The notes beneath the pieces were generated by a model. The model was not told the origin of the DNA. It did no database searches and saw nothing but the letters and a program-made list of their open reading frames with translations. 64,000 nt of DNA, taken from NCBI RefSeq assembly GCF_024700885.2, contig NZ_CP117016.1; one strand, given 5' to 3'. Shown here piece by piece: positions 2,539 to 38,998 of the stretch. The stretch comes from Escherichia coli. Lineage in GTDB: Bacteria; Pseudomonadota; Gammaproteobacteria; Enterobacterales; Enterobacteriaceae. Positions within the stretch are counted from its first letter, which is position 1. Each line of letters begins with the position of its first letter. The position numbers were made by a program, and so were the translations under genes.

Positions 2539-3195
2539 GTGCAACGAGCGCGTTGTTATCTGATAGGTGAAACGGCGGTAGTGCTGGAGCTGGAACCGCC
2601 GGTGACGCTGGCTAGCCAGAAACGGATCTGGCGACTGGCGCAGCGTCTGGTGGATATGCCGAATGTGGTTGAAGCCATTCCCGGCATGAACAATATCACG
2701 GTGATTTTACGTAATCCTGAGTCGCTGGCGCTGGATGCCATAGAGCGTTTGCAACGCTGGTGGGAGGAGAGCGAGGCGCTGGAGCCGGAGTCTCGCTTTA
2801 TTGAAATTCCGGTGGTTTACGGTGGCGCAGGCGGACCGGATCTGGCGGTGGTCGCGGCGCATTGTGGGTTGAGCGAAAAACAGGTTGTTGAATTGCACTC
2901 CTCCGTGGAATACGTGGTCTGGTTTTTAGGTTTTCAACCGGGCTTCCCGTATCTCGGGAGTTTGCCGGAACAACTACACACGCCACGGCGCGCTGAACCG
3001 CGCTTGCTCGTTCCGGCAGGTTCTGTCGGGATCGGCGGGCCGCAGACCGGTGTTTATCCGCTGGCAACGCCGGGTGGCTGGCAGTTGATTGGTCATACCT
3101 CACTCAGCCTGTTTGATCCGGCGCGTGACGAACCCATCTTATTACGTCCGGGAGACAGCGTGCGCTTTGTACCGCAGAAGGAGGGAGTATGCTGA
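2539..3195 (+). CDS. pxpB: 5-oxoprolinase subunit B (YbgJ), 218 aa
   Basis: ORF in ybgJKL operon arrangement; length matches K-12 PxpB. Confidence 0.9.
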
Positions 3196-4121
3196 AGATT
3201 ATTCGTGCGGGCATGTATACCACTGTGCAGGATGGCGGTCGTCACGGTTTTCGCCAGTCGGGTATCAGCCACTGCGGCGCACTGGATATGCCTGCGTTAC
3301 GCATTGCTAACCTGCTGGTGGGTAATGACGCCAATGCCCCCGCGCTGGAGATAACGCTCGGTCAGTTAACGGTAGAGTTCGAAACTGATGGTTGGTTTGC
3401 CCTGACGGGGGCAGGTTGCGAAGCGCGGCTGGATGATAATGCCGTCTGGACTGGCTGGCGCTTGCCGATGAAAGCAGGCCAGCGTTTAACGCTTAAACGC
3501 CCACAGCACGGGATGCGCAGTTATCTGGCGGTCGCGGGTGGTATTGATGTTCCGCCGGTAATGGGGTCATGCAGTACCGATCTCAAAGTGGGGATTGGCG
3601 GGCTGGAAGGCCGTTTACTGAAGGATGGTGACCGACTCCCGATGGGTAAATCGAAGCGTGATTTTATGGAAGCGCAGGGCGTTAAACAGCTGCTGTGGGG
3701 CAACCGCATTCGCGCCTTGCCGGGGCCGGAATATCATGAGTTCGATCGCGCCTCGCAGGATGCATTCTGGCGTTCGCCGTGGCAGCTTAGTCCGCAAAGT
3801 AACCGCATGGGCTATCGCTTACAGGGGCAAATTTTAAAACGCACCACCGATCGCGAACTGTTATCTCACGGTTTGTTGCCGGGTGTGGTGCAAGTGCCGC
3901 ATAACGGCCAGCCGATTGTGTTGATGAACGATGCGCAAACCACCGGTGGTTATCCGCGTATTGCCTGTATCATTGAGGCTGATATGTACCATCTGGCGCA
4001 AATTCCGCTCGGTCAGCCGATTCATTTTGTCCAGTGTTCACTGGAAGAGGCACTGAAAGCGCGGCAAGATCAACAACGTTATTTCGAACAATTAGCGTGG
4101 CGGCTGCACAATGAAAATTGA
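3189..4121 (+). CDS. pxpC: 5-oxoprolinase subunit C (YbgK), 310 aa
   Basis: Overlaps pxpB stop by 7 nt (translational coupling); length matches K-12 PxpC. Confidence 0.9.
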
Positions 4122-4845
4122 CCTGAACGCCGATCTGGGCGAAGGCTGCGCCAGCGACGCAGAGCTATTAACGCTGGTTTCCTCTGCCAATATTGCCTGT
4201 GGATTTCATGCAGGCGATGCGCAAATCATGCAGGCTTGCGTGCGTGAAGCAATAAAAAATGGTGTCGCGATTGGCGCTCACCCGAGTTTTCCCGACCGGG
4301 AAAATTTTGGTCGCAGTGCCATGCAGCTGCCGCCAGAAACCGTTTACGCCCAGACGCTGTATCAAATTGGCGCGCTGGCAGCGATTACCCGTGCGCAAGG
4401 GGGCGTAATGCGTCATGTCAAACCGCACGGCATGTTATACAACCAGGCGGCGAAAGAGGCACAACTGGCAGACGCCATCGCCAGAGCGGTATACGCTTGC
4501 GATCCGTCATTGATTCTCGTCGGGCTGGCGGGAAGCGAGCTGATTCGTGCAGGCAAGCGATATGGTCTGATAACGCGCGAGGAAGTGTTTGCCGATCGCG
4601 GTTATCAGGCTGACGGCTCGCTGGTGCCGCGAAGCCAGCCAGGCGCGTTGATTGAAAACGAAGAACAGGCGCTGGCGCAAACGTTGGAGATGGTGCAACA
4701 CGGCAGAGTCAAAAGTATCACCGGCGAATGGGCAACGGTCACGGCGCAAACGGTCTGCCTGCATGGCGATGGCGAGCACGCACTGGCATTCGCCCGCCGA
4801 CTACGCTCTACATTTGCCGAAAAGGGGATTGTTGTCGCAGCATAA
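4111..4845 (+). CDS. pxpA: 5-oxoprolinase subunit A (YbgL, LamB/YcsF family), 244 aa
   Basis: LamB/YcsF-like sequence; operon position after pxpC. Confidence 0.9.
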
Positions 4846-4880
4846 TCCCGCTTAATAAAGAATGAAAAAAGGATATCACC

Positions 4881-5672
4881 ATGCCTGAAGGCCCGGAGAT
4901 CCGCCGTGCAGCGGATAACCTGGAGGCGGCGATCAAAGGCAAACCACTAACTGATGTCTGGTTTGCCTTCCCGCAGTTAAAACCTTATCAATCACAACTT
5001 ATCGGTCAACACGTTAGCCATGTGGAAACGCGAGGTAAGGCGTTGTTAACTCATTTTTCCAACGGTTTAACGCTCTACAGCCATAATCAGCTTTACGGCG
5101 TCTGGCGCGTGGTTGAAACCGGCGAAGAGCCGCAGACCACGCGAGTATTGCGGGTAAAACTGCAAACGGCTGACAAAACCATTCTGCTTTATAGCGCCTC
5201 GGATATTGAGATGTTGACCCCGGAACAACTGACCACGCATCCGTTTTTACAACGCGTTGGCCCCGATGTGCTGGATCCGAATCTGACGCCGGAGGTGGTA
5301 AAGGAACGATTATTGTCGCCGCGCTTTCGTAACCGTCAGTTTGCTGGATTACTGCTCGATCAGGCGTTTCTGGCAGGACTTGGCAATTATTTGCGGGTGG
5401 AGATCCTCTGGCAGGTGGGGTTAACCGGCAATCATAAAGCGAAAGATCTCAGTGCGGCGCAACTGGATGCACTCGCACACGCGTTACTGGATATTCCTCG
5501 ACTTTCTTACGCTACGCGGGGGCAGGTGGATGAGAATAAACATCATGGGGCGTTGTTTCGCTTTAAGGTTTTTCATCGTGATGGCGAACCGTGTGAACGC
5601 TGTGGCAGCATCATTGAGAAAACCACGTTGTCCTCGCGCCCGTTTTACTGGTGTCCAGGCTGCCAACACTAG
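4881..5672 (+). CDS. nei: Endonuclease VIII (Fpg/Nei family DNA glycosylase), 263 aa
   Basis: N-terminal MPEGPEI motif typical of Fpg/Nei family; C-terminal zinc finger CxxC...CxxC; conserved position. Confidence 0.95.
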
Positions 5673-6715
5673 GCCGACCGCTTCGGCGCATAGGTTGAAA
5701 TAAACCGCGCAATGGCTGGCCCCGTCAGCAAAATACTGAACAGGCGCAGGGTTTGCATCGCCATAATAAGCGCCATATCGGCATTGCTCCCTGCGGCGAT
5801 GACCGCCACGGTATCAAGCCCGCCGGGGCTGGTGGCGAGGTAGGCAGTCATAAAATCAATATGCATAAACCGGGTCAGTCCCCACGCCATACCTGCACAA
5901 ATAGCCAGCAGAGCAAAAATCGACAGCAAGATTTGTGGCAGCGGGCGCAATGCCCGCAGTAAGATTTGCTTATCGAAACCAAGACCAATCCGCCAGCCAA
6001 TTGCCATATACGCCATCGCCAGCAGCCATTCCGGGAGTTCAATCGTGATGAGCTGACCAGACTGGAGCACTGCGCCCGCCAGCATCGGGATGAGCATCGT
6101 GCCGGAAGGAAGACGTAGCAAACATCCCGCCGTACCGGCAACGACCGCGAGCAAAATCGTAAGCAGGAGATTAATGCTCACTGGCGGGAACCAGACGATC
6201 TGCTGGTTAACCGCTTCAGCGTTATCGCCCAGCATCATGCGGGTGACCAGAACAGCGGCCCCCGCGACGAACAGCACTCGCAGATATTGCATAAACGCCA
6301 CCAGGCGAATATCTGCGCCGTAATCTTGCGCCATAGCGACCATTGCCGCCGCGCCGCCAGGAGAAGAACCCCAGGCACCGGTATTTCCAGGCAGTGAGCT
6401 ATAGCGCACCAGTAGCCACCCAACAATGGCGCTGGAAAGCAGCGTCACCAGTAAAATTGTAAGCACGATCGGCCAGTTGACGGCCAGCGTGGTGAGAATC
6501 GAACCAGTGAGGTTTTGCGCAATCATGCAGCCAAGAATGGCCTGGGCGGCGAGAAAAGCAGAGCGGGGAAGTTGCAGAGTAATTCCGCGCATACTAAAGA
6601 TGATCCCGGCGATCATCGGTCCAAGTAATAGCGCCGCCGGGAGATGTAATCCGAGGAAGCCAATAGAAAGGAGAAGTGAGAGCACACATAACATTCCCCA
6701 CTGCAAAACTGGCAT
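5669..6715 (-). CDS. abrB: AbrB-family membrane protein (putative regulator/transporter), 348 aa
   Basis: Hydrophobic multi-pass ORF; start placed at [10 protein letters not shown] (ORF-track start 26 codons further upstream is probably not used) to match the K-12 length. Confidence 0.85.
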
Positions 6716-6867
6716 CCTTCGCTCCCTCATTATTTTTTCTTTGGTGTATCGATACAGCATAAAGAAAGCCGGGCCAGGAAAAAATAACAGCAATCAAGGA
6801 AAAGGGGAAAATCAGCAATTTTCTGAAAGAGAGGCCCTTTACTGACTGCAAAGGGCATCATGATAAA

Positions 6868-7929
6868 TTAGTTATAGTTAATCTTAAAAAGCACCACTGT
6901 ATCGAAGGGACCCGCTTCGATGGGGGTGCCGGGAATGGACGAAAGTTCAGCCGTATAGGTTTTTTCGTAGATCAGCATATCGCTGGTGAAATCAGCATAT
7001 TCGCTGTATTTGTTGAAAGTATAGGGTGAAGAATTTTCATCCAGCAAACGTAGCTTCAGTCCATTACCAATCAGCAGTGCTTTATCCTCTTCAATCAATG
7101 TTTCTTCGGTATAAAACGAAGAGCTGACCTTAAATCCGTCGGTGCACTGGTCATTTTGTGATTTTGTCGTCTTAATACTGAATGTTTTCGACATTGTGTG
7201 GCGGCGAATATCCAGCAGGTTAAATTTACCAAAATCAATCACCTGTGTTTCTGGTGAAATAGAAAAATTGACGCTGCAATCCAGTACACGAATGTTTTCC
7301 AGACCAGTAATATGGTATTTCAGGTTTTGGGCGGTAGGGTCTTCGTTAACGCTACCGGCACCATCAAATTGCACGACGATGTAGTCGCTAAGCGTACTTT
7401 GATAATCATGCGGCGGTATTTCGCGAATCTTAACGTATAACCGCATACGAGCAAGAAAGGTTCGCGACATGTGAATATTAGCGGGGTCACCCGAGCATAT
7501 TTTGTTCTGCCAGCCCATCGCGATAATCTGCTCAGGGGTATAAATGTTAATGTTCTTACTGTCGATACACTGGTTGGTGTCGATGCGGCTTTTCCCCTGG
7601 TTGGCGTCATAATCAACGCCATTGTAAGTTACGCCGAGTTGATAATAGCGATCCTGCACCCCCGGGTAGGGGTTTACCCAGGCGTAGACATGCTCACTTT
7701 CAAAGTTGCCGTTGGTATTGTTGTCACAATAGACGGGAATTTTAATATCGTCAGATTCCCAAATCTTATCGCCGGGTTTGGCATTGCCTGGTACAGCAAA
7801 AGGTTGAATCACTTCTGATTTTTCTACCGAACCACCGGATGAACCAAAGTAGCAGTTCAGGGCAAGCGCAGACTTCAACGGCAGAAATACCAGACAGATG
7901 ACGAGCAACACTCCCTTGCCAGCACTCAT
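6868..7929 (-). CDS. ybgO: Putative fimbrial adhesin/minor subunit YbgO, about 353 aa
   Basis: Last gene of chaperone-usher operon; signal-peptide-like N-terminus; start placed at MSAGKG, a 4-nt overlap with the ybgP stop. Confidence 0.85.
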
Positions 7930-8657
7930 TTCTTCGCCTCCACTGCTTGTAAACGGCATTGTCCGCTGCAGTTGAGCGTCGTCATGCGTAACGCGCCGTA
8001 ATCATCCATATAACCGAGATAAAACTGCCTGCCGCTATAACTTCCGGTGTTTGTAATTACTGTACTAAAAGGCGCAACCATCACGGTTTTGAAGCCCGGG
8101 AGAATACCTTGCTCATTTCGTCCCAGGTAGGCGATTGTCAGGTAATAGCCGGTCGGGTTTTTTAAGTTAAGTTGATTGCCCTGCTGGCTGACTTGTAACT
8201 GTAGCTCGACTTTTTCTCCTGCTTTCTTGCGTAACGCGGACGGTCTCCAGAACACCTTGATACGACTCTGGATAGCGACTTGCAGAACGGCATGGTCGCT
8301 ATTTTTTTCCGGGGCGGGAGGAATTTCACGCATATTGTAGAAAAATAGCGTTTCGCGATCGCCCGGTAATTTTGTGGTCGAGGCTTGCTTTACTATCCGT
8401 ACCTGCGTTGTTGCTTTCGGTTCCAGACGTTGTATCGGTGGCAGGGCAACCAGAAGATCATCGCTTTTCTCCCCTTTTTCATTTTCGAGCCAGGAATAAG
8501 CGAGGTAGGGGAGTTTATCGCTACGATTATCCACTCGCAGGCTGGTGGCTTTATCATTAGCGTTAAACACAATGCGAGTGCGATCGGGTTGTAGCGCAGC
8601 GTAGCTGCACAGACTGGCAATCAACAACAAAAGGGGAAGTCCTTTCATAAATGTCAT
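7926..8657 (-). CDS. ybgP: Periplasmic fimbrial chaperone YbgP (PapD-like), 243 aa
   Basis: Size and signal peptide typical of PapD-family chaperones; sits between usher and adhesin genes. Confidence 0.88.
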
Positions 8658-23722: not shown

Positions 23723-23822
23723 ATATCTGTAATAAGAAATAGCCCTCGCCGCTTCCCTCTACAGGAATGGCGAAGGGTTGTCGGTTTCGACATGGTTGGC
23801 CATCGTATGATGGCCTTTTTTA
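23723..23822 (+). ncRNA. sdhX: Probable SdhX (RybD) 3'-UTR-derived sRNA of the sdh-suc transcript
   Basis: About 100 nt between the sucD stop and a strong intrinsic terminator; in E. coli this 3' UTR is known to give rise to SdhX; exact 5' end not determinable from sequence. Confidence 0.5.
23798..23822 (+). terminator. Rho-independent terminator of the sdh-suc operon
   Basis: Hairpin GGCCATCGTATGATGGCC followed by TTTTTT. Confidence 0.85.
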
Positions 23823-24387
23823 TGCCTTAAATGTTAACCACGGTCGAAATCTGACCGCTGGCTTGACTGCATGACCACAGCCACTGTGGATTGCCGCAAC
23901 CGACCGCAAGCCACGAATAAGAACGACGGCGAATTTCGAATCGTTACCTGATGCACTGGCTTCCCAGCGTTTGACCGTAGCGTTAAGTAAATCAACAAAA
24001 GCGATGTTCACCGCTTATCGTCAAGTCGTGCCATTTGTCAGCCAGGATCGGGTCTTTACCCCGGATATTGCAGCATCGCAAAAATTCTTAGAGGGATATG
24101 CTATAAATCAAAAATAAAATCTTTGTTGATTGTTTATCATAATATCCACAGATATGATAAATGATATCAATTTAATAATTTTCACTTAATGTGATTCCGG
24201 ATAATTCGAAAGGCGCTGTGCTTTTCGGATTATTATTATCTGATTAAGATATTTGTCACGCCAGGCTTACTGGGTTATAAATGTCAATCATGATTCTTAT
24301 AAATTATTTATTGCTGCTTTGGTTACCATTACTTCGTAATAAGTAATGTATTTTTGATGGTTTAAACTATTTTTAAGGGACGGCATT

Positions 24388-25293
24388 ATGCGAGGAAAAA
24401 TACCTAAAACGGAGCTGCTGGTGACTTTTGAGGTCGTCGCACGTCATGAAAGTTATACCAGAGCGGCAGAGGAGTTAGCGTTAACCCAAAGTGCAGTATT
24501 CAGACAAGTGAGTGCGCTGGAGGAATTTTTACATACTCCGTTATTTTCACACTCTAAAAAACGTATTTTTCTTAATGATGCAGGGAAGTATTACCTGGGG
24601 ATAGTAAAAGAAACATTAAATAAGCTGGAACGCGATACCAATACCATTATGACCTGGCAGCCTACGGTTCAGGTTATTGAACTTGCCGTGAATCCTACGT
24701 TTAGTACCCACTGGTTAATCCCAAATTTACATGAATTCACAAAGTTACATCCCGATATTATTGTTAATATTCATTCTTTAGCTAATAACGGCGATTTTCT
24801 TAATCGGGAGTACGATGCTGTCATTATGCGCGAAAATTTTTGCGCGCCCTGGGCGGAAGTAGAATATCTCTTTGAAGAGGAGATTTTGCCGGTATGCAGC
24901 GGCAGTTTGCTTGCAATGTCCGATCAAAAACTGTCAGTGGCAGAACTGCTTACAGAGTTACCACTTCTGCATCAAAGTACCCGTATTACTGGCTGGGAAG
25001 AGTGGTTTGCCTTATCTGGCGTTAGCAGTCCGCTGGTCAACAACGGACCACGTTTCGATTTGCTTTCAATGCTGATTGCCGCCGTGCGCTCGAATCTCGG
25101 CGTGGCGCTGTTACCTCGTTTCGCTATTCAACATGATTTGGATAGTGGCGATATGGTGATCCCCTGTGATGTGCCTATTCGTACCGGTAATCGTTTTATT
25201 ATGACGTGGCAGGAAGAGAAGTCTGACTCACCGCACTTGCAGCAATTTCGTGAATGGTTGCTGGCGAAATCGGTCGTACCGCAGGAGATGTAA
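24388..25293 (+). CDS. LysR-family transcriptional regulator, 301 aa
   Basis: N-terminal HTH (ELALTQSAVFRQVSALEEFL) and LysR substrate-binding-like C-terminal domain; convergent with the distal end of the methylaspartate operon. Confidence 0.85.
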   Translation: MRGKIPKTELLVTFEVVARHESYTRAAEELALTQSAVFRQVSALEEFLHTPLFSHSKKRIFLNDAGKYYLGIVKETLNKLERDTNTIMTWQPTVQVIELAVNPTFSTHWLIPNLHEFTKLHPDIIVNIHSLANNGDFLNREYDAVIMRENFCAPWAEVEYLFEEEILPVCSGSLLAMSDQKLSVAELLTELPLLHQSTRITGWEEWFALSGVSSPLVNNGPRFDLLSMLIAAVRSNLGVALLPRFAIQHDLDSGDMVIPCDVPIRTGNRFIMTWQEEKSDSPHLQQFREWLLAKSVVPQEM

Positions 25294-33514: not shown

Positions 33515-33749
33515 TGATTGCAGCCTTAATTGTTATAGGGTTAAGCATTGAATACTGGTGCGCGCGGCGGCCAGTGGATCGACTCTGGCGACGTTTGCCA
33601 GCAGTGGTAATAGCCCCCGGGAATCGCGGTAATATTCAAATTCGGTCGGTAAGAGAATGCGTTTACCGTCGTCGTTTAACTCGCGGTATTTCAACCAGTG
33701 ATGCATATCGAACTGACTGGCACGCGAGAGCCATCCGCCGGAACCAACG

Positions 33750-33757
33750 ACTTTACG
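33750..33757. repeat. Target-site duplication (left copy) ACTTTACG
   Basis: 8-bp direct repeat immediately flanking the IS26 left inverted repeat. Confidence 0.85.
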
Positions 33758-34577
33758 GGCACTGTTGCAAATAGTCGGTGGTGATAAACTTATCATCCCC
33801 TTTTGCTGATGGAGCTGCACATGAACCCATTCAAAGGCCGGCATTTTCAGCGTGACATCATTCTGTGGGCCGTACGCTGGTACTGCAAATACGGCATCAG
33901 TTACCGTGAGCTGCAGGAGATGCTGGCTGAACGCGGAGTGAATGTCGATCACTCCACGATTTACCGCTGGGTTCAGCGTTATGCGCCTGAAATGGAAAAA
34001 CGGCTGCGCTGGTACTGGCGTAACCCTTCCGATCTTTGCCCGTGGCACATGGATGAAACCTACGTGAAGGTCAATGGCCGCTGGGCGTATCTGTACCGGG
34101 CCGTCGACAGCCGGGGCCGCACTGTCGATTTTTATCTCTCCTCCCGTCGTAACAGCAAAGCTGCATACCGGTTTCTGGGTAAAATCCTCAACAACGTGAA
34201 GAAGTGGCAGATCCCGCGATTCATCAACACGGATAAAGCGCCCGCCTATGGTCGCGCGCTTGCTCTGCTCAAACGCGAAGGCCGGTGCCCGTCTGACGTT
34301 GAACACCGACAGATTAAGTACCGGAACAACGTGATTGAATGCGATCATGGCAAACTGAAACGGATAATCGGCGCCACGCTGGGATTTAAATCCATGAAGA
34401 CGGCTTACGCCACCATCAAAGGTATTGAGGTGATGCGTGCACTACGCAAAGGCCAGGCCTCAGCATTTTATTATGGTGATCCCCTGGGCGAAATGCGCCT
34501 GGTAAGCAGAGTTTTTGAAATGTAAGGCCTTTGAATAAGACAAAAGGCTGCCTCATCGCTAACTTTGCAACAGTGCC
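33758..34577 (+). mobile_element. IS26 (IS6 family), complete 820-bp copy
   Basis: 14-bp terminal inverted repeats GGCACTGTTGCAAA (33758-33771) and TTTGCAACAGTGCC (34564-34577); internal transposase matches IS26 Tnp as I recall; flanked by 8-bp direct repeats. Confidence 0.93.
33821..34525 (+). CDS. tnpA: IS26 transposase Tnp26 (DDE), 234 aa
   Basis: MNPFKGRHFQRDIILWAVRWYCKYGISYRELQEMLAERGVNVDHSTIYRWVQRYAPEMEK is the canonical IS26 transposase N-terminus (from memory); start placed at the ATG 18 nt inside the ORF-track start. Confidence 0.93.
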   Translation: MNPFKGRHFQRDIILWAVRWYCKYGISYRELQEMLAERGVNVDHSTIYRWVQRYAPEMEKRLRWYWRNPSDLCPWHMDETYVKVNGRWAYLYRAVDSRGRTVDFYLSSRRNSKAAYRFLGKILNNVKKWQIPRFINTDKAPAYGRALALLKREGRCPSDVEHRQIKYRNNVIECDHGKLKRIIGATLGFKSMKTAYATIKGIEVMRALRKGQASAFYYGDPLGEMRLVSRVFEM

Positions 34578-34585
34578 ACTTTACG
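34578..34585. repeat. Target-site duplication (right copy) ACTTTACG
   Basis: 8-bp direct repeat immediately flanking the IS26 right inverted repeat. Confidence 0.85.
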
Positions 34586-35748
34586 CACGGTTGTCAGGTC
34601 ACGTCCCATCTGTAAATCGACATTGCCGACGCAGGTGCAGACCTCTTTTTTGGTGCCCGCATGTCTTTCGGTGGCATAACCCACACACAGTCCGGCCAGG
34701 ACGGTATCGAAATATTTTTCTTCTGCATTCGCGGGTAAGTAGTCGGGATGAGCGACTAGATGGCGGAGGTAATGATAAAAAGCGTCCAGCTGTGCGGGTT
34801 GCTGAGCAAAATTCACATTGACTAACTCTTTCGCACTTTCACCAACCACCATTGCCGAGACGCGCATTCCCAGATCGCCTTCCACCGTCCGTTTCACGAA
34901 GGGTTCCGGTACGCCGTGTAAAACGGTGTCGGGCGAGAGCGTGTTGGCACAGGCGGAATAGACATCGGTGGTTGCGCCACCCATGTCGATCAGCATGAAC
35001 TCTTTCCAGCTGTGATCGACGTTACTGATTGCCTTAACCAGTTCAAAGACCGTCCATGGTGTCGGCATTGGTTCTTCGCCTGTTTTATCAACAATGACAT
35101 CCAACCCTTTCCCTTTAACGATGCGTTTAAGGAATATGTCGCAGATAGCCTGGCGTGCAGCTAAAGGGTTCGGATGGTCAAGATCGGGCAGAACGTTGTC
35201 GACGATGGTCAGGTCTTTATGCCCGAGGATCTCCTGCACCTCGTCCTGAATATCCCGGTTTCCGGCATAAATAATGGCGCAGTCGAGTTTGGATTCTGCC
35301 AACACACGGGCGTTATTCAGTCCGTAGCTTTCTTCTCCGCCATCGGTGCCGCCGGTGAACAAGAGAATATCGGGCTGCGTTTCTTCCAGTGCCTGGATAT
35401 CACGGCGGTTCAGCTTGTAGGCGTAATATTGCGCAATTTTAGCACCCGCAGAGTGAGCGGTTACTTTCGCGGTTTCCAGGGTGATAGAAGGCACCAATCC
35501 CATTGCGGCAACCGCCAGCCCACCTTTGGCAGAGGAGGAATACTTCAATGCAACCTCACCACTGTTTAACAGGGGGAGGGCATTATCTACGTTTAACACC
35601 TGGTCCAGGCTGGAGAAAAACCCCTTCGCCAGATGATGGGTGGTGGTTGGGGTCAGAACGTGGTTAACCAACGTTAACGCGTCCCCCTCCCGGGTGAAGA
35701 GGGCTGCTTTGGTCCACGTCGAACCAATATCGACAGAGACGATTTGCA

Positions 35749-36198
35749 TCAGATTGCCTCTTCAAGAATGCGAGTATCAACGTCATGACGTTGGTTGATA
35801 TCGTGGGCCATCAGCTGACAAACATCTTCTAAGTCATGACTTGGGGAAAAGACGCGATCAAATCCCATCTCTTTGAACTTGGTTTCCACGTCAGCGAAGT
35901 CATGTTTTCCGACCACCAGGTTACCGCCCACATAGAGCAGGATGTTACCCAGCCCACGCTCGATGCAGCGTTCGCGCATGCCCAGACAATCGATATCGCC
36001 ATGCCCATAGATAGAGGAGACGACAATCGCGTCAGCACCAGTTTCAATGGCAGCATCAATATATTCGTCCTGGCTGACCATTACGCCCAGATTAATAACT
36101 CTGAAGTCATGGTTGCTAAAAACGCGGTCCAGAACTTTATTGCCTACTGCATGGCAGTCCGCGCCAATAACGCCAATCACAAGTGTTGCTTTCTTCAT
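35749..36198 (-). CDS. glmS: Glutamate mutase sigma (B12-binding, S) subunit, about 149 aa
   Basis: [24 protein letters not shown] contains the DxHxxG cobalamin-binding signature; start at ATG 36198 preceded by AGGA; stop overlaps the glmL start (ATGA). Confidence 0.88.
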
Positions 36199-36745
36199 GG
36201 GTAATCCTTTGTAAGACAGAGAGTAAAATAAGTTACACACGTCGTATTTATGGCCGCTCATAACGGCACAGGTTTAATATCACAGGAGTGTCTTTATCTG
36301 ACCGTAATGTTGCAATTGATCTATTTTCAAAATGTCTTTCGGGAAATGATTGTTTAAAGTGTGTTTTCAAATTCTCATTTTAATTCAGTGTGTTATGTCA
36401 ACTAATGTCATGAATGTTAAATTTTTAAAATTAACTTGATTTGATGTATTGAGATAATTGTGATCAACTTCTAATTTGCATTTTTGTGACGTGGCTTTAG
36501 CCATGAGTAAATACATTTCATAAAAGTTAAGTCGAATTTCACTGCAATTCATCTCTGCTTAATGTAAAAATAATGTTGAAAATAACAAATAATTAATGAT
36601 TCATGCGAATTATGACCTTTGTTAGCTCTTTTGATTTTTCGTAAAAAAGAAAAGTACATGAAGGTGCTACCAGTACGAGTAACGTTAATCAAAAGTTTTA
36701 TTACGTCTGGCAATAACGCAGGCCATTTTTCGCGACAGGAGGGAT

Positions 36746-37168
36746 TTAATCAGTATAATCCTCATACAATAGGTCAGGATTTACTGAACCGTTAACGGGG
36801 ATTTGGTGTTGAAATTTAGAAATGGCGGAGTCAATTAATGAAGACAATATCGGAAAAATGACAGTGTCAGAATTAATTTCAATTAATCCTTCTCGTTGTT
36901 GACCAAAAAAGATATTTATCTTGATTTCATTTGTACTACGGCAATCAATATGCAGTAATTTTTGATCGCTGAGATTTTCTGTTTCATAAATGTTTTTGGC
37001 GATAGTCGGATGTATTGATGCCAGACATCTGCTCAGATAAGCCAGATCCTTTAGGGAACACCCCGCTGAGTAGAGGATGTCAGAGAATTTTTGTGTGTCA
37101 ACTGTTGTCTCTGAAGCGTATGTTGCATTGACAGGAAGGGTGTTGAAAGAGATTTGAGATGGGATCAT
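36746..37168 (-). CDS. Hypothetical protein, 140 aa, no recognisable family
   Basis: ORF in a markedly AT-rich block; co-directional with and 80 bp downstream of the 314-aa orphan ORF; coding status unverified. Confidence 0.45.
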   Translation of the reverse strand: MIPSQISFNTLPVNATYASETTVDTQKFSDILYSAGCSLKDLAYLSRCLASIHPTIAKNIYETENLSDQKLLHIDCRSTNEIKINIFFGQQREGLIEINSDTVIFPILSSLIDSAISKFQHQIPVNGSVNPDLLYEDYTD

Positions 37169-37248: not shown

Positions 37249-38193
37249 TTAAAGTATTTGATTGGCATCGGTTAACTGATCAATAACCAGTGCCAGATTG
37301 GTAAACATTTTGAAAAAGCGATACTGGCTCGGAATATCTCTTTCAAAGACGAAACATTCAATGTCATTGTTTGAAAAATAAAGGACTAGTGTTGCTGATT
37401 CGTCAGGAAAAATATGGAAATATATCTGGTTACCAGAAGGAGGATAGTCCAGATGAAGGGTATCTTTGCCCGTCACATACCTGTTGTGGTCGTGGATGCT
37501 GCGCTCACACTTCATCAGAGGTGTCATGATACTCATGTATTCATCTGATGTTAATATATTAAAATCACCATCCATTTTAAAGAAACGATAAAGTAACAGT
37601 ACATCCTCTTGCGTAACCGGTTCGTTTGTTTTTAGAGGGAAATAAGTGGGAACCAGAAGATGAGGTTCTAATCTATTTTGTTGAGCGCTATAACTAAATT
37701 TGAACATAAATTCCGGATCGCTCATTAATTGAGCGACATAATTATGCCTGGCTTCAAAAATTTTAACTTTTATCAGGTTAAATAAGTCTGTTTCGTTATC
37801 CTGTATTAAAAGACATTGGCCATAGCAGCCAGGCTTTTTTTCATTATAAGCAGAAACGGTTATTCTGTCAGGAGTGTCAACGTTATATCCAAAAGCCAGA
37901 TAGTGACCTTCCTCATCGAGATTTGTTTCCAGGTTATTTAAATTCATCACATGAAGTGTTTGCAATGCTGATTCAATGAGCTGTTGACTCTCTGAGGTAA
38001 ATGTTTCGCGCTGCGTTGTATAAAGTGTATCGATTCCAACGACTATCCGATGTGGGTCAAGGATGGCGGCAATCATCTTTATTACCTGCACAGTCATGGG
38101 TGATGTCATTGATTCTTTATCTGTTTTTAGAGGATCATTAGATGGCCAACCTGAGAAGCGATTGACAGCAGAACTGATATTATCAGGACTCAT
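37249..38193 (-). CDS. Hypothetical protein, 314 aa, no recognisable family
   Basis: Longest ORF in an AT-rich region with no competing frame; no signal peptide or transmembrane segment evident; no motif I can assign. Confidence 0.55.
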   Translation of the reverse strand: MSPDNISSAVNRFSGWPSNDPLKTDKESMTSPMTVQVIKMIAAILDPHRIVVGIDTLYTTQRETFTSESQQLIESALQTLHVMNLNNLETNLDEEGHYLAFGYNVDTPDRITVSAYNEKKPGCYGQCLLIQDNETDLFNLIKVKIFEARHNYVAQLMSDPEFMFKFSYSAQQNRLEPHLLVPTYFPLKTNEPVTQEDVLLLYRFFKMDGDFNILTSDEYMSIMTPLMKCERSIHDHNRYVTGKDTLHLDYPPSGNQIYFHIFPDESATLVLYFSNNDIECFVFERDIPSQYRFFKMFTNLALVIDQLTDANQIL

Positions 38194-38647: not shown

Positions 38648-38661
38648 TTGATATAAATCAA
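38648..38661. promoter_or_regulatory. FNR-type site TTGATATAAATCAA in the cydA upstream region
   Basis: Perfect TTGAT-N4-ATCAA palindrome about 340 bp upstream of cydA; cydAB is known to be FNR/ArcA regulated. Confidence 0.55.
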
Positions 38662-38998
38662 TTTTTAATTCTTGAAAAAAATCTGCAAAACACGATAAAT
38701 TGTCGTAGATCAAATTGGTGAGATCGTGACAATTTCGCTATAAATTGATCACTGTCGAAAAATGCAAATTTGCTCAATAAAAACCTGTTTATTGTAAGGA
38801 TTTTGCGGCGTAATATAATTACGGGATCAATTTGGTTTATTCATTAACATATTTGTAACTTTTTTATCATTGTCTTTTCCTCTTTTGATGAAATGGCAAC
38901 GATAGAGGCGAGCAAATAATTTTGTATTGGGGCATGCGTGTGACCCTTTCTAACGGGGTTCACTCTCGGAGTCTTCATGCGATGAGCAAGGAGTCATG

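Follow-up and report, generated by a model that had tools for sequence, protein, structure and literature searches.

In Escherichia coli, GcvA acts on gcvTHP and gcvB from a LysR-type control region that includes distal GcvA and CRP sites and an operator with a CTAAT core. LysR-type regulators recognise interrupted dyads that follow the T-N11-A rule, classically within a block of about 50 bp formed by a recognition site near −65 and an activation site near −35, and a poor match to the promoter consensus is typical of activator-dependent promoters. Here we analyse the DNA upstream of glmS, the gene from which the methylaspartate-pathway operon is read, in a window of 64,000 nucleotides of E. 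coli DNA (contig NZ_CP117016.1 of assembly GCF_024700885.2; all coordinates are those of the window unless another locus is named). To this known cluster we add a conserved promoter and operator, which, judged by motif and geometry, appear to form a control region of conventional kind. The fuller proposal, that this is an ancestral activator-dependent promoter whose operator would be bound by the GcvA-like LysR-type regulator of the cluster itself, has about an even chance of being right in our estimation.

The cluster was described in E. coli O157:H7 and other Enterobacteriaceae by Kronen and Berg in 2015 (PMC4682846), who drew a putative LysR regulator in their Fig. 5, described no promoter, operator or regulation, and found no condition in which E. 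coli O157:H7 expressed it. It is carried by 1135 of 5426 complete E. coli genomes (about a fifth, O157:H7 included) and by many opportunistic enterobacteria. A defined promoter, an invariant operator and a candidate regulator make the question of what switches it on directly testable.

Compared with GcvA and LysR control regions in general, the glmS upstream region shares a T-N11-A dyad, a block of protected size (about 45 bp) that reaches the −35 element and a weak promoter that would need an activator. A further likeness to gcv, best taken as a lead, is the presence of conserved sites about 190–270 bp upstream at a fixed distance. Unlike in the GcvA case, the operator bears no relation in sequence to the CTAAT core, its best dyad lies near −43 and not −65, and in E. 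coli the regulator gene, placed at the distant end of the cluster, converges with cobO instead of diverging from its target, binding at glmS being a prediction made here.

A conserved predicted promoter and putative operator precede glmS

The gap between glmS, which encodes a B12-binding domain (35749-36198, minus strand), and the next open reading frame (ORF) spans 36199-36745. It measures 547 bp at 32.0% G+C, compared with 51% for the glm operon and 51% for the whole window, and it bears no RefSeq annotation in any of the 1135 E. coli genomes. A preliminary description of this DNA, made from the letters of the one sequence, had noted about 550 bp of non-coding AT-rich DNA here and had taken it for a long leader likely to hold the operon promoter and anaerobic regulation sites. 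Extent, composition and lack of annotation are as described, and the gap does lie upstream of glmS; the wording needs the strand to be specified, given that the operon runs from right to left. The word leader also overstates the transcribed part, which by prediction amounts to about 82 nt only.

For comparison, 80 loci with GlmS relatives were fetched and their cydA-to-glmS intervals compared, with about 50 enterobacterial glm loci entering the analysis. One alignment covered the upstream DNA of 28 species (mean column identity 47%) and a second, ungapped and anchored on the motif, gave a consensus of 35 loci. Outside Escherichia most of the gap is without a homologue; only some 30–45 bp near 36311-36354 and roughly the final 35 bp ahead of the ATG are kept. 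The 18-mer TGAAAATAGATCAATTGC (36312-36329, minus strand), which holds TTGATCTATTTTCAA as its core and is single copy in the window, is exact in 36 of the 37 close loci (GlmS at least 82% identical), the exception having its last base changed. These close loci belong to Escherichia, Klebsiella, Citrobacter, Salmonella, Enterobacter, Lelliottia, Pluralibacter, Buttiauxella and Pseudescherichia. With three mismatches at most the 18-mer is also found in Budvicia, Yersinia and two more enterobacteria, and among the loci compared it has no match outside Enterobacterales.

Variation within the species has the same shape. Across five diverse E. coli alleles, 1.3% of sites (1/75) vary in 36280-36354, where operator and promoter lie, and 2.5% in 36199-36279, compared with 21.4% in 36355-36499 and 18.7% in 36500-36745; the operator block described below has no variable site at all. 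Cross-genus footprinting divides the gap into a functional core of about 155 bp and a fast-evolving distal part of about 390 bp (36355-36745) that has drifted.

A position weight matrix scan of 32 species in anchored coordinates returned one position-conserved promoter-like arrangement and no other (mean score 5.9, against at most 1.45 elsewhere). On the minus strand it consists of a predicted −35 element TTGCAA (36310-36315), whose TTG is invariant, and, exactly 17 bp past it, a predicted −10 element GACACT (36287-36292), whose A-11 and T-7 are invariant in the 28-species alignment. Over the 32 species the form is TTGC(A/T/C)(A/T), exactly 17 bp, then (G/C)A(C/A)ACT. When anchored on ATCAATTG, Yersinia, Hafnia, Budvicia and Morganella present TTGTnn-17-CACATT, and ENT03 and Yokenella present TTGCAG-17-CATATT with the same spacing. 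Both hexamers, a spacer inside the 16–18 bp range, A-11 and T-7 are thus in place for a sigma70 promoter; agreement with the consensus is 7/12 positions, a match weak enough to be missed by a simple promoter scan, which found no minus-strand promoter in the gap. The conservation of this geometry in 32 close species and in distant lineages supports the view that the operon has a promoter of its own within the gap, where the preliminary description had placed it. From the −10 element we infer a transcription start near A36280.

The operator block occupies 36308-36353 on the minus strand (about 45 bp, −73 to −28 from the predicted start), as delimited by the ungapped consensus of 35 loci. Its stronger, proximal element is the dyad TTGA-N7-TCAA (TTGATCTATTTTCAA, 36316-36330, read on the plus strand), which is centred near −43 and abuts the −35 element. 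The 18-mer itself extends over bases one to four of the −35 hexamer. Further upstream, a second and weaker dyad, TCnTTT..AAnGA, is centred near −62 (about 36335-36349). The proximal dyad conforms to the T-N11-A rule, and its T(G/C)A-N7-TCA form is kept in all 8 LysR-positive contexts inspected.

The cluster encodes a GcvA-like LysR-type regulator

The cluster encodes a single regulator, which is of LysR type. Its gene (24388-25293, plus strand) follows sucD, lies at the end of the cluster far from glmS and is convergent with cobO. The protein contains the Pfam domains HTH_1 and LysR_substrate, its best NCBIfam assignment is the GcvA subfamily and its closest solved structure is GcvA (8y6u). 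An orthologue is encoded in eight of the nine cluster contexts inspected, and all eight are GcvA-like; identity to the E. coli regulator is 58–86%, and 55–86% over all orthologue pairs compared. These contexts represent three settings: in the sucD-cydA interval (E. coli, K. oxytoca, C. youngae, P. vulneris), beside cob genes (Lelliottia, Buttiauxella, Y. frederiksenii) and fused to B12-uptake genes (Enterobacter sp. ENT03). Linkage of cluster and regulator is therefore established for eight contexts, with a divergent regulator gene in ENT03 and Y. frederiksenii.

The regulator gene of ENT03, whose product is 58% identical to that of E. coli, is transcribed divergently from the operon, and the module made of a 30-bp operator followed by TTGCnn-17-(−10) is present twice, in the divergent gap and before glmS (3184-3213 and 8049-8078 of locus L089). 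Aligned without gaps, the two operator copies agree at 25 of 30 positions, and the highest score among 200 shuffles was 22. The ninth context, Morganella, has no regulator, fumD or cobO gene within 10 kb, and there the left dyad arm is degenerate (TTA), with ATCAATTGT-17-CACATT retained.

Taken together, the T-N11-A dyad, the block, the co-occurrence, the duplication in ENT03 and the decay in Morganella, all of them correlative, favour the cluster regulator as the operator-binding activator. A LysR regulator had not been considered in the preliminary description, and it fits the evidence best. We propose that sigma70 polymerase would sit on the weak minus-strand promoter of glmS-glmL-glmE-mal-...-fumD-cobO. 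The LysR regulator, most likely the protein bound at the operator of about 45 bp, would together with its co-inducer bring polymerase to the poor −35 and −10 elements or shift its position there; absent the active regulator the operon would be silent. The CRP-like site (some 187 bp upstream) and the TG block (some 107 bp upstream), both described below, would probably add catabolite or architectural control, and the remaining gap may be a fast-evolving AT-rich spacer of the H-NS-coated type. The identity of the binding protein and the direction of regulation, here activation, are what we infer from conservation, geometry and co-occurrence.

Several observations weigh against binding and activation by the cluster regulator. 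ATCAATTG and the promoter survive in Morganella although no regulator gene is nearby, so part of the conservation may stem from the promoter itself or from another protein. Co-occurrence of cluster and regulator is confounded by shared ancestry, and one context only is regulator-negative. The strongest dyad is near −43, not near −65 as in the classical LysR recognition site, and in E. coli there is no second operator copy in the window or before the regulator, gltP or fumD genes. An alternative −10 element, TATTAA (36274-36279), would move the start about 13 nt downstream, although it is not kept in distant lineages. The literature searched on regulation of the cluster gave nothing on a transcription start, a footprint or expression of the locus. 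Finally, glmL is split by IS26 in this strain, so that regulation is moot for the genes downstream of it in the window.

In the gap before fumD of Yersinia frederiksenii (5754-5967 of locus L093), where the regulator gene is the first of a divergent unit LysR-fumD-cobO (3496-6888), we find ACAATTGAT, which has a palindromic CAATTG core and overlaps a predicted −35 element (TTGATT-16-AATAAT); the cluster regulator may act here too. A block AATCATGG(nnn)GGATCAATGAC is present about 115 bp before the ATG of the regulator gene in Klebsiella (about 20830-20850 of L083), Citrobacter and Lelliottia (L086, L087). This regulator-gene block, AATCATGGnnnGGATCAATGAC, overlaps a predicted −35 element ATGACA and is not kept in E. 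coli. Its likeness to the glmS operator is limited to AATAGATCAAT (an 11-mer, in K. oxytoca), and the spacing differs. It may be an autoregulatory site. Buttiauxella, Lelliottia and Morganella have operator-like sequences in their cbiA-pduX gaps, which by a rough estimate are within chance.

The variant cluster of ENT03 (2169-8161 of L089), also seen in L052 and L053, has a divergent LysR regulator gene and then B12-uptake-like genes upstream of glmS. These comprise a FecCD permease, an ABC ATPase, a TonB-dependent receptor and a BtuF-like binding protein.

FNR, other DNA-binding proteins and upstream transcription

The preliminary description had given two near-palindromes, TTGATCTATTTTCAA and TGTGATCAACTTC (36459-36471), as examples of several that resemble, without exactly matching, FNR or CRP half-sites. 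Both are present as quoted and both fall inside blocks conserved across genera. In the single sequence such resemblance carries little weight: over the window, TGTGA-N6-TCACA with at most two mismatches gives 24 matches where 26.9 are expected, and TTGAT-N4-ATCAA with at most two mismatches gives 47 where 34 are expected. At this chance level FNR- and CRP-like matches in one sequence are uninformative, and significance comes only from conservation across species.

If the dyad were a class II FNR site, centred near −42.5 and serving anaerobic activation with CRP as co-activator, several features would be explained. The right half, ATCAA, is a perfect and invariant half-site, the site abuts the −35 element as in class II promoters (TTGAT-N4-ATCAA at −41.5), and a B12-dependent glutamate fermentation that involves an oxygen-sensitive class I fumarase (PMC4682846) would be well served by anaerobic, CRP-assisted control. 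The spacing, however, is one base longer: TCAA lies 7 bp from TTGA in TTGAAAATAGATCAA, against 6 in an FNR site, which makes the dyad N7 and not N6, and taken as a 14-mer it has mismatches at 3 of the 10 FNR core positions, the critical G among them. Accordingly it is not among the TTGAT-N4-ATCAA matches in the window at two mismatches or fewer, although the cydA control region is, with a perfect consensus TTGATATAAATCAA at 38648-38661 and weaker matches at 38700-38713 and 38745-38758 that serve as an internal positive control of the pattern search. The mis-spaced left half is itself invariant in the close loci; elsewhere it reads CTGAC or CTGAT (Yersinia), TTCAG (ENT03 and Yokenella) or CTTAC (Morganella), so that the FNR half-site is not conserved in orthologous promoters. 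Because the extra spacer base is invariant and other lineages have a left half unlike that of an FNR site, we reject FNR as the primary reading of TTGATCTATTTTCAA and regard it as improbable. The enzymes of O157, moreover, were not induced by anaerobic growth (PMC4682846).

It is also conceivable, if rather unlikely, that the operator is bound by a protein encoded outside the cluster (IHF, Fis, ArgR, H-NS or an unlinked regulator) and that the LysR protein acts elsewhere or not at all. The Morganella promoter, kept along with ATCAATTG where no regulator is near, would be expected under this proposal, as would the lack of an autoregulatory copy in E. coli. The operator may in part resemble the IHF core (ATCAA-N4-TT) and the high-affinity H-NS motif. 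IHF itself was rejected: its consensus WATCAANNNNTTR is satisfied neither in E. coli (GATCAATTGCAAC) nor in the other lineages. It is rare for nucleoid proteins to keep every base of an 18-bp stretch invariant, and the duplication of the operator beside the divergent regulator gene of ENT03 points instead to a pathway-specific factor. Far less probable, in our view, is that transcription comes from further upstream, whether by read-through from the orphan genes or from TTGACA-19-GAGAAT, with the conserved block lying in an RNA leader or acting as a roadblock operator. The simple scan found no terminator-like site past the orphan ORF, the TTGACA element scores best in the E. coli gap, and Yersinia-type loci carry the block 175–290 bp from the ATG, so that long leaders do exist. 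Yet the block is conserved outside Escherichia, where both the orphan genes and the TTGACA element are missing; no Rfam family, conserved RNA structure or covariation accompanies it, and the TTG-17-nAnAyT geometry is a promoter signature at the DNA level. With the promoter block intact in Klebsiella, Citrobacter, Salmonella and E. whittamii, which lack the orphan genes, the promoter is older than the orphan-gene insertion and read-through is not required.

Taken as a single sequence, the E. coli gap scores highest as a promoter at this TTGACA-19-GAGAAT element (36371-36401, minus strand), which is found upstream of the operator.

CRP-like and other distal sites

Upstream of the operator, the CRP-like site AATTGTGATCAACTTCTAATTT (36456-36477), which contains TGTGATCAACTTC, is centred near −186.5. 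It matches the consensus at 16/22 positions overall and 8/10 in the core, with one perfect half, matches of this quality occurring at chance frequency in the window. The corresponding conserved block, AAATAAGAnnnnGATCACAAA, agrees with CRP at 13–16 of 22 positions in most loci and at 11–12 in the Pseudescherichia group; it keeps its TCACA/TGTGA half and stays, to within about 2 bp, at a fixed distance from the 18-mer, whereas the intervening 120 bp or so lack conservation. Similar elements recur elsewhere: a second one near −267.5 in Klebsiella, Citrobacter and Salmonella, TATGA-N6-ATCACA at about −220 to −255 in the Yersinia group, and a perfect TGTGA-N6-TCACA near −231 in ENT03 and Yokenella. 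A far-upstream CRP-like element, as recognised by motif, is a recurrent feature of these loci. For the CRP label suggested earlier the signs are mixed: the TGTGA half and its distance are conserved across genera, but the centre near −186.5 lies outside the class I and class II range (−41.5 to about −93.5) from which CRP usually activates.

Between this site and the operator, a conserved block AAC....TGAT (36384-36394, minus strand) is found about −107 from the predicted start. Its TG (36386-36387) is invariant in the 28-species alignment and its position is fixed within about 2 bp.

These elements invite a more elaborate scheme, which we consider doubtful, in which the operator, the CRP-like sites and the TG block, at fixed distances across some 190–270 bp of DNA that otherwise drifts freely, would act as a looped, GcvA-style nucleoprotein switch. 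It would leave a cryptic operon for B12-dependent glutamate fermentation off until a gut-specific metabolite is sensed by the LysR regulator. Were this so, the identity of the ligand would reveal the condition under which the methylaspartate pathway operates in E. coli O157:H7 and its relatives. Base composition makes silencing of the 32% G+C gap by H-NS plausible, and such silencing would be consistent with the lack of laboratory expression of the cluster.

Predicted 5′ untranslated region

Transcription from A36280 would give a 5′ untranslated region (UTR) of about 82 nt (36199-36280, minus strand) with a Shine-Dalgarno sequence AAGGA at 36205-36209, and the ribosome-binding region is conserved across species. 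A small hairpin GCCG..CGGC (36253-36267, minus strand) lies about 13–28 nt into this UTR; its stem is kept and its loop variable within Escherichia. Many other genera have an unrelated hairpin at this place; folded species by species, a small hairpin appears in many though not all, with weak folding z-scores (mean −0.8).

RNAalifold returned no conserved structure for the predicted UTR (−0.24 kcal/mol, no compensatory pairs). Rfam gave only chance-level matches in the gap at E ≤ 10, and none at gathering score in 14 related loci. A riboswitch or regulatory leader, for instance a cobalamin one, was rejected, there being neither an Rfam family nor covariation. The reading of TTGC as the −12 element of a sigma54 promoter was likewise discarded, as no GG is found 10–12 nt upstream. 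In Citrobacter amalonaticus S646 (L014) the predicted UTR contains about 110 bp of extra G+C-rich DNA, and the distance from operator to ATG is 241 bp, compared with about 130 bp otherwise.

Gene neighbourhood, orphan ORFs and IS26

After the regulator gene, the minus strand carries cobO, fumD, gltP, the genes for DUF4387, AtuA and methylaspartate ammonia-lyase, glmE, glmL and glmS, in this order. Beyond the gap follow two orphan ORFs on the minus strand, of 140 and 314 aa (36746-37168 and 37249-38193; 37% G+C), and then cydA on the plus strand (38996). Searches of Pfam, NCBIfam, PADLOC and PHROGs gave no match for the orphan ORFs. E. coli has them, Escherichia sp. MOD1-EC7003 has them in part, and E. 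whittamii, Klebsiella, Citrobacter and Salmonella lack them, which indicates an insertion at a point flanked by the cydA control region on one side and the glmS promoter on the other. The distal AT-rich DNA (36500-36745, minus strand) is Escherichia-specific and arrived with or beside this insertion: it shows no homology in Klebsiella, Citrobacter or Salmonella, and E. whittamii shares 36563-36604 only.

In this strain glmL (33533-35749, minus strand) is interrupted by an IS26 copy of 820 bp (33758-34577), with terminal repeats GGCACTGTTGCAAA, an 8-bp target duplication ACTTTACG and an IS6/IS240-type transposase ORF (33803-34525). A search of 5,426 complete E. coli genomes found none with this exact IS26/glmL junction. 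The operon past glmS is probably inactivated here or subject to polarity.

At the other end of the cluster, an unusually long non-coding gap (23723-24387, 665 bp) separates sucD from the LysR gene and contains a dyad TGAT-N7-ATCA at about 24155-24169.

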